Source: Nitrospirota bacterium (lineage in GTDB: Bacteria > Nitrospirota > UBA9217). Taken from it: a DNA stretch of 64,000 nucleotides. The notes beneath the pieces were generated by a model. The model was not told the origin of the DNA. It worked only from the letters and a program-made list of their open reading frames with translations, and ran no database searches. This document shows positions 2,628 through 40,033 of the stretch, piece after piece. The position numbers and the translations under genes were made by a program. Position 1 is the first letter of the stretch; every line of letters starts with the position of its first letter. The stretch covers positions 608,001 through 672,000 of the forward strand of contig OY760142.1 in assembly GCA_963663225.1 (NCBI GenBank), given 5' to 3'.

Positions 2628-3049
2628 ATTTGCATACAACTTAAGTTATGAAATAGTAACAATTACAAGGAGTGCTGTCAAATGAAATATTATGCAACAA
2701 ATAGGTGATTCAGATATGTCATCCTGCACACCTCTACTGTAATTTCAAAAAAATGTCATTTTTTTGTGAATATTCAGGAAGCAGCAGATGAACAGTTCCA
2801 TAACAGGTAAGTCTGTAGCTAATGCAGGATATACCGCTCAGCAATCCGTGCGGCAGTTGCCAGAGAAAGGAAAAGTAACGTATATAAATACGAACGTCAT
2901 TACTTGGTCTTTCTTGTCCACTTGCGGGGAAAATACTCGGAAGATCCAGACAGGAAGCCCGCTCTCGATTCAGAGAACGAATGCAAAAACCCGGCAGCTT
3001 CAGGTTTTTATCACTCCTTGAGCAAAGCATCCGATGTTCGACGAGGGAG

Positions 3050-3316
3050 TTACTTCAACTGACTGTCTTTACTGCCACTTCGATTGTACAAGGCAACCGT
3101 CTTCTGCCTTTTTTCGAGTTCTGACTGGCATTGGACACAATAACGGACTCCGGGCATCGCCTTCTGTCGCGCCTCAGGGATAACCGCCTCGCATTCTTCA
3201 CAGTGAGTCAGGCTTTCACCATCCGGCATCCGGCTTCTGGCTAACTGGACTGCCGACTCCACCGTGGCATCTATTTGTTCCTGCACCGCCCCATCGCGGG
3301 ACCAACCGACTGCCAT
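3050..3316 (-). CDS. DksA/TraR family C4-type zinc finger protein (YbiI-like)
   Basis: MAVGWSRDGAVQEQIDATV...CEEC...IPEARQKAMPGVRYCVQC...YNRSGSKDSQLK; start reassigned to ATG 3316. Confidence 0.92.
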   Translation of the reverse strand: MAVGWSRDGAVQEQIDATVESAVQLARSRMPDGESLTHCEECEAVIPEARQKAMPGVRYCVQCQSELEKRQKTVALYNRSGSKDSQLK

Positions 3317-3379
3317 GACAGACTCCCGTTGTTTCTGATAATTAATTATACGATTATTGGGGAAAAAATCAACCCGGGG

Positions 3380-3618
3380 CAATAATGTCCAAGAGAATCG
3401 AGTGGAGTCCCCTCCGGGAGGAGCCGGAGATCCCTCGATAGACACGACCTCCTGCTTGTACCCAGCGCTAACGAGTGCGATAGCGCAAGTGCAGGGTACG
3501 ACTTACTGCATCCCTCCCCCGACAAGAGTCGGGGGATTCCATGTCGCAGGGATTAAACAAACTAACCAGCTTACGAAAGTCATCATGTCTGTTTTACTGC
3601 TCTCTACCCGCCTATACG
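3380..3618 (-). mobile_element. Structured non-coding element, putative internally deleted IS110-family remnant (non-coding end RNA without recombinase)
   Basis: Three stem-loops (3397-3439, 3458-3499, 3510-3553), an orphan AGGAGG-GTG (3453-3443), and minus-strand motifs GTATAGGCGGGTAG / TAAGCTGGTTAG / AATCCCTG / ATGGAAT / GAGGGATGC that I recall from IS110 non-coding ends. Family assignment and boundaries are unverified. Confidence 0.45.
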
Positions 3619-4011
3619 CTATATTAGGGCAGGAAAAAATTTGGCCAGCAGAATTAAACCATTTTTACCCGCTATCACTTTGTGATTCATCCTTTTTGGA
3701 ATCAGTGCCATGCGCCCTGGGTAGTATGCATTTTTCTTTGTGTTTAAGAGGAATACTCCATCACCGGATATCACTTCATGCAATTCCCACTGGACATCGT
3801 GAGTGTGCTCGTCTAAAACGGAACCGGGATCAATTCGGACCATATGGCAGCTTAATTTCCCTTCAGTATCCGCGCCTTTTATAAGATGTTTCAAACAGAC
3901 TCCATAAAATTTGGGATGCTTTTCCCAGGGAATTTCCTTGGATGCATCTTCTCTATTCAGATAGATTGTGGAACCATTTTCCATACGAGTTGCAATCTCT
4001 TCGCTTTTCAT
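3619..4011 (-). CDS. Cupin domain protein
   Basis: Cupin motifs HTHDVQWELHEVISGDG and PGRMALIPKRMNH; AGGAG RBS before ATG 4011. Confidence 0.85.
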   Translation of the reverse strand: MKSEEIATRMENGSTIYLNREDASKEIPWEKHPKFYGVCLKHLIKGADTEGKLSCHMVRIDPGSVLDEHTHDVQWELHEVISGDGVFLLNTKKNAYYPGRMALIPKRMNHKVIAGKNGLILLAKFFPALI

Positions 4012-4218
4012 AATGTCTCCTATTGCTGTTTGATCAGGTTTTGAATTTCCCAAGGAGCATACATCCCGGCGAAATGAATGTCTTGTATAATATTGCTATC
4101 TATTAGTCGACGACGAGGTCACACGCCGTGAAGAGAATTAATGATGAGCGGTTTTACAGGACGATTATCCGGCTAAAAAAATTTAACGGCTTTCATTCTG
4201 CTCTATTCTGTCCAACAG

Positions 4219-19211: not shown

Positions 19212-19940
19212 TTAGTATGTATTCCATCCCGGTATTAAAATCGTCAGTTTGTCCATAATCAGCAGCACGCCCATGACAATCAGGACAACTCCGCTTATTA
19301 TTTTAATGACCTTGAAGTGTTTTCTGACGATGTTGAATGAAGTCAGAAACGTGCTGATGGCGATTGACGAAAGAATAAACGGAATACCGAGGCCCAGCGA
19401 GTAAAACGTCAACAGCACCATGCCTGTGCCCACCGTGCGCGTTTCCATGGCCAGCGCCAGTACCGACCCCAGAAACGGTCCGGTGCACGGGGTCCAGCCC
19501 GCGGCGAAAACCATCCCGATAACAAGCGTTCCCGCATATCCCGCAGGCCTTGTTTTCAGATGCAGCCTTGCTTCCTGCTGAAGGAAAGGGATCTTTACCA
19601 CGTCCATGACAAAGATACCCATGAGTATGACAAAAACTCCTCCTGCAATCCGGATGTTCTCCAGGTGCTGTGACAAAATGCCGCCCGCCATGCTTGCTGT
19701 TGCCCCTAAAAGCACGAATATTATCGTGAACCCTGCAACGAAAACACCGGTATGCAACAGTGAAATTCTCATGTTTCTGCCGCGTGAGCCGGGGCTCACC
19801 AGATCATCGTAGCCGATTCCCGTGATATAGGAAACATAGGAAGGGATCAGGGGAAGAATACAGGGGGACACAAAGGACGTGAGCCCCATAAAAAGAGAAA
19901 ACAGCAGCGTGTACAGTGTCAGTCCCTGTGCAGGGTCCAT
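19212..19940 (-). CDS. ccdA: Cytochrome c biogenesis protein CcdA
   Basis: SFVSPCILPLIP, GWTPCTGP, YSLGLGIPF; multiple TM segments. Confidence 0.93.
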   Translation of the reverse strand: MDPAQGLTLYTLLFSLFMGLTSFVSPCILPLIPSYVSYITGIGYDDLVSPGSRGRNMRISLLHTGVFVAGFTIIFVLLGATASMAGGILSQHLENIRIAGGVFVILMGIFVMDVVKIPFLQQEARLHLKTRPAGYAGTLVIGMVFAAGWTPCTGPFLGSVLALAMETRTVGTGMVLLTFYSLGLGIPFILSSIAISTFLTSFNIVRKHFKVIKIISGVVLIVMGVLLIMDKLTILIPGWNTY

Positions 19941-39763: not shown

Positions 39764-39770
39764 ACGGTCA

Positions 39771-39920
39771 CTTGTTCTCAGGGCGGGGTGAAATTCCCCA
39801 CCGGCGGTGTCCCGCGTTTCGGCGGGGAGCCCGCGAGCGCTCCTTCCATGCAGGAAGGAGGTCAGCAGATCTGGTGAAAAGCCAGAGCCGACGGTCACAG
39901 TCCGGATGAAAGAGGACAAG
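39771..39920 (+). ncRNA. FMN riboswitch (RFN element)
   Basis: CAGGGCGGGGTGAAATTCCCCACCGGCGGT...AGCCCGCGAGCG...AGCAGATCTGGTGAAAAGCCAGAGCCGACGGTCACAGTCCGGATGAAAGAG, upstream of ribB. Confidence 0.97.
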
Positions 39921-40033
39921 GCGGTTGCCTGTCACAGACGGCATGCCTTGCACACGGTTGCCCTCACGCGTGGGGGAAACTGCCTGCCCTTCGCCCTGGT
40001 TCTGGTACATAATACTACAACAGGAGGATTACC

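Follow-up and report, generated by a model that had tools for sequence, protein, structure and literature searches.

A new gene-less family of probable IS200/IS605-type (PATE-like) elements in Nitrospirota

Palindrome-associated transposable elements (PATEs, in the terminology of Dyall-Smith et al. 2011), first described in Haloquadratum, are set apart by four features: they lack inverted terminal repeats, carry palindromes close to the termini, make no target duplication and are too short to code (PMC3119063). They are reported to persist where transposase genes are mostly broken (PMC3119063), forms of 52 bp that consist of the termini only are described as arising by deletion between the palindromes (PMC3119063), and PATE-like elements are reported to be mobilised in trans in Geobacillus stearothermophilus (PMC10055086). 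Among IS200/IS605 elements, IS608 of Helicobacter pylori is described as inserting 3′ of TTAC with neither gain nor loss of nucleotides (PMC3201880; PMC5934647). The distance from cleavage site to hairpin is given as 19 nt on the 5′ side of the left hairpin and as 10 nt on the 3′ side of the right one, and the sites are picked by pairing with the four bases 5′ of the hairpin feet (PMC3201880), the pairs being given as AAAG (left guide, GL) with TTAC (left cleavage site, CL) and GAAT (GR) with TCAA (CR) (PMC5934647). Excision and insertion are reported to use the lagging-strand template, and other members of the family to be so oriented in genomes (PMC5027513). Here we describe a repeat found in a 64,000-nt stretch of a Nitrospirota bacterium (contig OY760142.1, positions 608,001 to 672,000; hereafter the window), which belongs to a genome of 3,255,001 bp in one contig that is 99% complete. 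We propose that nucleotides 3401 to 3551 of the minus strand of the window are probably a copy of a gene-less, non-autonomous element of IS200/IS605 type, that is, a PATE.

The element is delimited by comparison with sites that lack it. An orthologue of the neighbouring cupin gene was found in only one of the 40 relatives searched, the sister species G004 (95% amino-acid identity), and the spacer between the cupin and ybiI-like genes of this species (locus L050) aligns with that of the window on both sides and is without exactly these 151 nt. On the top strand of the element, which is the minus strand of the window, the empty site reads ...GTTTAAT/CGCTTC... and the filled site ...GTTTAAT/CCCTGCGAC...GACTCCACT/CGATTC..., with slashes at the junctions. 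Metagenome contigs in runs X7 and X9 likewise join window position 3399 to 3551, skipping the 151 nt, and one contig in run X6 bridges 3385 to 3581 with 43 other letters between them; these three runs may sample the population of G004, and they are therefore not counted as independent. The sequence-only reading of this locus had suggested a search for empty sites between cupin and ybiI, which are indeed the sites recovered here. It had also treated 3380 to 3618 as the unit, and this has to be corrected to the 151 nt given above, as 3380 to 3400 and 3557 to 3618 are unique flank that is kept in the empty site of the sister species.

Further filled and empty pairs come from the other copies in G004. 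Nineteen copies were checked, of which five lie at sites that are uninterrupted in our genome and 11 are common to both genomes; a short form in G004 corresponds to a 50-nt minimal form here, one copy is replaced by unrelated sequence and one lies at a contig end. Two of the sites filled in G004 only fall within the window, at approximately 19231 to 19234 (L052) and 26890 (L051), and both carry long-form copies in G004. The boundaries of the element were set from 42 aligned copies together with the five further filled/empty pairs, and all six pairs fit a filled arrangement of TYAAT, element and flank against an empty arrangement of TYAAT and flank. A single T is ambiguous in this placement and permits 3402 to 3552 in place of 3401 to 3551; apart from that T, target duplication is absent in six of six pairs. 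Genome-wide, TYAAT precedes 18 of 24 matches to the left end (TCAAT in 14 and TTAAT in four), its background rate being 0.2% per position, and four of the six matches without it look like chance matches. Outside TYAAT, the flanking sequence at positions -12 to -6 and +2 to +12 is close to random.

Read along its top strand, the locus presents the target, a leader, the left hairpin, a linker, an optional internal hairpin, a second linker, the right hairpin and the terminal oligonucleotide (Table 1). The leader together with T3536 (16 nt, 3551 to 3536) ends in GGAAT, and so in GAAT, just 5′ of the foot of the left hairpin, where IS608 has its guide tetranucleotide; this hairpin starts 16-17 nt from the left end and its cleavage site. 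The right hairpin ends 2-10 nt from the right end, the latter lying 10 nt past the inner stem, and in the family alignment its stem and loop are similar to those of certain left-hairpin variants. Terminal inverted repeats are absent, as the different letters of the two ends make plain, and the only complementarity between the ends is an offset, subterminal one of 10 nt (TGGAATCCCC with GGGGACTCCA).

Table 1. Positions in the window of the element, its parts and the neighbouring features
Feature	Position	Strand	Basis
Mobile unit, 151-nt long-form copy, 5'-CCCTGCGAC...CTCCACT-3'	3401..3551	-	empty sites and family boundaries
Target pentanucleotide TTAAT (family TYAAT), directly 5' of the element on the top strand	3552..3556	-	retained in empty sites
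Left-end single-stranded leader CCCTGCGACATGGAA	3537..3551	-	most conserved block of the family alignment
Left subterminal hairpin (IP_L-like), TCCCCCGAC/loop/GTCGGGGGA	3515..3536	-	covariation
Optional internal hairpin, GTACCC...GGGTAC around GCGCTA...TAGCGC	3458..3499	-	long copies only
Right subterminal hairpin (IP_R-like), CTCCGG/CCGGAG inner stem and bulged GGAG/CTCC outer stem	3404..3434	-	covariation
Right terminal oligonucleotide CTCCACT	3401..3407	-	conserved at copy ends; flank beyond unrelated among copies
Cupin-domain gene, upstream neighbour	3619..4053	-	open reading frame; Pfam Cupin_2 E = 1e-6
88-aa DksA/TraR-type zinc-finger gene (ybiI-like), downstream neighbour	3050..3316	-	open reading frame; Pfam zf-dskA_traR E = 5e-10
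Promoter-like site TTGATT-16-TATAAT for the ybiI-like gene	3345..3372	-	consensus scan 10/12, pattern match only

Several lines of evidence argue that the hairpins are maintained. Folded as single-stranded DNA, 3396 to 3562 of the minus strand reaches -36 kcal/mol (z = -4.52, with none of 200 shuffles as good), while the RNA fold of the whole 239-nt interval reaches a z of only -1.97 (seven of 200 shuffles as good), and hence the structure sits in the core and not in the interval as a whole. Pairs were counted explicitly in an alignment of 42 copies, drawn from this genome and seven other sources; this count replaced a consensus fold of the raw MAFFT alignment of 17 short copies, which was gappy and uninformative on both strands. 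Standard pairs occupy 88.9% of the stem cells, against 42-56% when the partners are slid by one to three columns, a control that somewhat flatters the structure since alignment and structure derive from the same sequences. Ten stem pairs vary on both sides, and the covariation score was reached by none of 500 shuffles. The left hairpin is the clearest, with six of its nine pairs changing on both sides (for instance 17 GC against 14 AU) and 90.7% of its cells paired; in the right hairpin 87.6% of the inner and 94.3% of the outer cells are paired and three pairs change on both sides. The internal hairpin, which is carried by 12-13 of 41 distinct aligned copies, has a weak inner stem (73% paired). 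Cells with G.T (52) and with A.C (44) are nearly equal in number, so that the hairpins are maintained with no RNA-type wobble signal for either strand.

The stems listed in the sequence-only reading are all where it had placed them. These are ATCGAG (3397-3402) with CTCGAT (3434-3439), CTCCGG (3412-3417) with CCGGAG (3424-3429), GTACCC (3458-3463) with GGGTAC (3494-3499), GCGCTA (3465-3470) with TAGCGC (3481-3486), TCCCCCGAC-AAGA-GTCGGGGGA (3515-3536) and ATCCC (3510-3514) with GGGAT (3549-3553). The first of them is of a different kind: the ATCGAG arm is present, but four of its six bases are flank and are absent from other copies. Within the left hairpin, the top strand of the window copy has GGGGAGGG at 3516-3523 (-) where most other copies read GGGGAGGA; the former fits GGGNAGGG, the Escherichia coli consensus of the FtsK-orienting polar sequences (KOPS), and the match is probably a coincidence.

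The window copy had been called an orphan, a description that a genome-wide search does not bear out. A 301-nt query around the feature gave 29 BLAST matches in its own genome, and an nhmmer profile built from seven short copies found 33 separate loci at E < 1e-3, the window copy being one of them. All 33 are intergenic on a crude map of open reading frames (ORFs) of at least 100 aa, the sole overlap being with a 175-aa plus-strand ORF at the window copy that in turn runs into the cupin gene and is probably spurious. Copies occur as short forms of about 107 nt, in which query positions 62-116 directly abut 160-215, as long forms of about 151 nt with the internal hairpin, and as minimal forms of about 50 nt with a single hybrid hairpin (genome positions 818538 and 1983516). 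The window copy is 90-92% identical to three G004 copies at other loci, compared with 80-83% to the best copies of its own genome.

Outside this genome, 24 members of the same taxonomic family were searched and 14 of them carry the repeat; in the genus it is present in four of five genomes, and 16 genomes that represent other families of the phylum gave no match. Exact 20-mers were also sought in a set with a single genome for each species. This gave 28 stretches, of which 24 belong to metagenome-assembled genomes labelled Nitrospirota or Nitrospiraceae; the other four are single matches in unrelated taxa, three of which align only around the 20-mer, and by our own arithmetic about four chance matches are expected. 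Two long-form copies stand in tandem in our genome at G000:C1:14999-15455 (L002, 1216-1654), 297 nt apart and 88% alike, and the orthologous region of G004 (L059) has three copies, which suggests local duplication or repeated insertion. In the 5.7-Mb genome G010, solitary internal-hairpin modules and solitary right-end modules are both frequent, on several contigs, so that the modules may have separate histories.

The copies are oriented with the direction of replication. The cumulative GC skew is lowest near 1.21 Mb and highest near 2.80 Mb, dnaA lies at 1,218,934-1,219,413 on the minus strand, and the origin was set at 1.22 Mb for this analysis. The top strand is on the lagging-strand template, and so has the sequence of the leading strand, in 31 of the 33 copies and in all 20 that are full-length; the two exceptions are fragments. 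Five of five G004-specific insertions, mapped onto our genome, follow the same rule. The bias has a binomial p of 1.3e-7 against an expectation of 0.5 and of 3e-4 against the 67% co-orientation of a crude gene set. The neighbouring gene is co-oriented with the element in only 20 of 33 cases on either side; the replication bias is thus not a by-product of transcription units, and an element linked to transcripts was rejected on the same count.

We propose a model for the movement of the element that is drawn by analogy with IS608 and with ISDra2 of Deinococcus. A Y1 (HUH) transposase supplied in trans would bind both hairpins on the single-stranded top strand, which would become exposed on the lagging-strand template during replication. 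The cleavage sites would be selected through pairing with the four bases 5′ of each hairpin foot, GAAT pairing with TCAA or TTAA at the left end. The transposase would excise the strand as a circle and reseal the donor precisely, and the circle would then be inserted at a fork, on the 3′ side of a further TYAA(T).

The element may be compared with the described systems. Like PATEs, it has no terminal inverted repeats, palindromes near its termini that resemble each other, no target duplication and a length too short to code (107-151 nt), and it shares with them strain-specific insertions, terminal-only forms and persistence where transposases are rare. It differs from PATEs in its occurrence in Nitrospirota, in its unrelated sequence, in that no matching parent element of IS605 type was found, and in having no TnpB/omega-RNA context within the genus. 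With IS608 and ISDra2 it shares the IS200/IS605 hallmarks of insertion 3′ of a fixed pentanucleotide that is retained at the left flank, precise empty sites and a top strand on the lagging-strand template, and the hairpin spacings are alike (16-19 nt at the left and about 10 nt at the right from the cleavage sites); it differs from them in having neither tnpA nor tnpB and in that GAAT/TCAA would be used at its left end, as the target. By eye, the GAAT before the left hairpin and the TCAA or TTAA 17 nt upstream of it match the right-end pair of IS608. The same pair is found in TnpB-bearing elements of IS605 type within the taxonomic family, which are 1.5 kb long, insert 3′ of TTAT, carry AAAA ahead of their left hairpin at a spacing of 17 nt, and end in ...GGGAAT-hairpin-AGGATGTCAA, that is, with GAAT and TCAA 10 nt from the foot. 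The guide rule proposed for the left end of our element therefore operates within the same bacterial family. A narrow literature search found no published description of the repeat, and the 151-nt unit is probably a member of a new gene-less, IS200/IS605-type (PATE-like) family.

The TnpB elements themselves belong to genera g3 and g19 (L174, L197, L198, L183, L181, L188 and others), and the genome G047 has at least 85 TnpB-domain matches. A tnpA-only, IS200-like element of 562-567 bp is present in G076 (L161-L164), with at least 12 identical tnpA matches, and in G053 (L169-L170); four copies were compared, and they carry matching subterminal hairpins and a right end of ...TAATTCACT. The G076 element has the same architecture as the window element and no sequence similarity to it.

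The search for an enzyme gave the following picture. In our genome there was no match to DEDD_Tnp_IS110 (PF01548), Transposase_20 (PF02371), Y1_Tnp (PF01797) or the TnpB zinc-ribbon domain; PF04986 (Y2/IS91) also had no match, which is uninformative as the control genomes are equally without one. Among 60 other genomes of the taxonomic family, Y1 transposases are present in 51, both as 147-aa IS200-type genes and as 290-350-aa genes that are low in copy number, and TnpB in 10, confined to two genera and not including the genus of the window. The sister species G004 has an intact 333-aa Y1 protein that matches Pfam Y1_Tnp and whose best NCBIfam match is 'REP-associated tyrosine transposase' (REP, repetitive extragenic palindrome; hereafter RAYT) at 68.8 bits, the curated cut-off being 80. 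The gene for this protein (L105, contig C63) is bracketed by direct repeats, with GGCCTTATGGGGA twice downstream and CGTCCCTTTCCACC twice upstream, and a second, broken Y1 gene lies 1.5 kb away. The hairpins of genus-level IS200 elements in G001 and G002 were compared with those of our element and no partner was found. As our genome has no Y1 gene, its copies, including that of the window, are most likely stranded relics.

A number of observations weigh against an element of IS200/IS605 type. The absence of a Y1 transposase from our genome is the plainest of them, as neither PF01797 nor the 333-aa Y1 protein of G004 used as a query (E <= 10) found one. The ends of the element were not found around the gene at any of 41 Y1 loci (best E = 0.013), nor at 40 IS200/TnpB loci (10 IS200-like and 30 TnpB; best E = 0.22). 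Ten metagenome stretches with the left end and 2-kb flanks held no autonomous partner: in seven the right end lies 110-127 nt away, one more ends with its contig, and the other two we infer to be ordinary short copies whose right end has a one-base deletion, the right-end pattern allowing substitutions only and the deletion being taken from alignments of contigs of matching length and not of those loci themselves. The left hairpin resembles the right-end hairpin of the TnpB elements (GGAAT-CCCC..GGGG-AGGA(A)TG) at nhmmer E values of only 0.2-5, and a profile of the TnpB right end had no significant match to the element in our genome. At the right end there is no clean match between guide and cleavage site, GGAG with CCAC or CACT being the pairing offered by eye. 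Copies within the genome are 72-93% identical, a level of likeness that gives no sign of current activity. Two species are compared here without an outgroup, so each difference between filled and empty sites may be an insertion or a precise excision, and the orientation bias could in principle come from selection instead of from the mechanism of insertion.

The sequence-only reading had traced the feature to IS110, as a miniature non-autonomous form of such an element or as a bridge/seek guide RNA standing by itself. What stands of this is a non-autonomous mobile element with no recombinase of its own, and the ORF list does hold none after the feature, as that reading had remarked; the IS110 identity is not supported, and we give it next to no chance. 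IS110 elements also lack inverted repeats and target duplications, the element shares with their non-coding ends a structured non-coding segment, and IS110 genes are present in 35 of the 60 other genomes. However, our genome has neither of the two IS110 domains, PF01548 is missing from the element-bearing congeners G001-G004 and has a match in G005, the congener in which the element was not found, and conservation of the target stops at 5 nt, in contrast to IS110 with its long programmed targets. No element ends surround the gene at any of 30 IS110 loci, the sole match at E < 0.01 (L147) being a 50-nt minimal copy 1.1 kb from the gene. Furthermore, the hairpins covary equally for either strand, and the bias with replication is one that is documented for IS200/IS605 (PMC5027513). 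A functional structured RNA, whether a leader of ybiI, a stabiliser or terminator in the cupin 3′ untranslated region or a multi-copy small RNA, would account for stable hairpins between a stop codon and a promoter-like site, and the REPs of E. coli are reported to affect mRNA turnover (PMC3479197). We nevertheless hold it to be very improbable, since the same two genes are kept without the element in relatives, so that a cis-regulatory leader of ybiI fails the synteny condition set by the sequence-only reading, neither hairpin is followed by a U-tract, the balance of G.T and A.C cells carries no mark of RNA, and orientation follows replication and not the neighbouring genes. The Rfam scan that the sequence-only reading had called for was run and matched no RNA family to the core: Rfam 15 at the gathering threshold over the whole window found only an FMN riboswitch elsewhere, and at E <= 10 over 3000-4100 only snoU36a and SraB appeared, at chance level and both outside the core.

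Two further explanations were considered. An element of the REP/REPIN kind served by a single-copy domesticated RAYT, which has the same Y1/HUH chemistry but would be associated with the host and not a decayed IS, is in our estimate unlikely. The RAYT-like protein of G004 and the similar low-copy Y1 genes of 290-350 aa across the family speak for it, as do the copies themselves, which, like the REPs, BIMEs and REPINs of Enterobacteria and Pseudomonas, are short, intergenic and mosaic hairpin repeats of presumed Y1/HUH mobilisation with a single-hairpin form of 50 nt. Against this, the NCBIfam score is below its cut-off, the element lacks the symmetry of an inverted REP doublet, since its two hairpins run in direct order and its target is on one side only, and it is present in tens and not hundreds of copies. 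The REPs are described as bordering their RAYT genes (PMC2817692; PMC3116915), whereas nothing similar to the element borders the G004 gene or 10 further Y1 loci of the genus. No such gene accompanies the 33 copies in our genome, and the six such genes of G003 go with a single match to the element. There is also a slim chance that a different enzyme specific for single strands moves the hairpin repeat, or that the host retains it as a replication-polar sequence. Such a reading would suit the very strong orientation bias in a genome with no Y1, TnpB or IS110 gene, and the lack of a partner in the Y1 loci, IS200/TnpB loci and metagenome stretches scanned; yet every measurable property matches the IS200/IS605 paradigm, and with Y1 genes in most genomes of the family the loss of the transposase from one genome is simpler. 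Taken as one proposition, that the family is the substrate of the low-copy 290-350-aa Y1 proteins with their long C-terminal extension, in the manner of REP/RAYT, or is moved by a non-Y1 enzyme, is unlikely. Were the former true, it would amount to a host-associated system of asymmetric elements, with insertion confined to sites 3′ of TYAAT and with strict replication polarity; were the latter true, it would account for 33 ordered copies in a genome without a Y1 gene.

The element opens no new mechanism. What it offers is a well-delimited new family in a poorly studied phylum and a natural data set for single-strand transposition, with a defined target, precise filled/empty pairs, near-complete polarity and a closed genome without any Y1 transposase. 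For annotation, it accounts for some 33 intergenic segments rich in hairpins, with further ones in related genomes, which might otherwise be annotated as riboswitches, small RNAs or terminators, and it removes a false lead, as the element is not an orphan IS110 guide RNA.

At its own locus, the element appears simply to occupy the spacer between the cupin stop codon and the promoter-like site of the ybiI-like gene. The cupin stop codon is at 3619-3621, next to the last position (3618) of the interval first singled out, which does adjoin it as had been noted, and 62 nt separate the stop from the target site. The promoter-like site is outside the element, 29 nt past its right end. Between the cupin stop and the element, at 3563-3600, the spacer differs from that of G004 by a 19-nt indel, with AAAGTCATCATGTCTGTTTTACTGCTC in our genome and AAACTGCTT in G004.

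Some minor observations were made in passing. The end GGGATTGA resembles the ends of some CRISPR repeats; a link to CRISPR was dropped, as no CRISPR-like array turned up when the genome was scanned by k-mers, and the GGGATTRA in question is the element end joined to the target. An array of a unit of about 21 nt (CGAGATTCGCCCCTCCGAGAT-like), with 4-6 occurrences, lies at G000:C1:3250835-3250982 of our genome and is not a CRISPR array. Finally, the FMN riboswitch of the window (RF00050) is at 39770-39921 on the plus strand and matches at full length with 113.4 bits.

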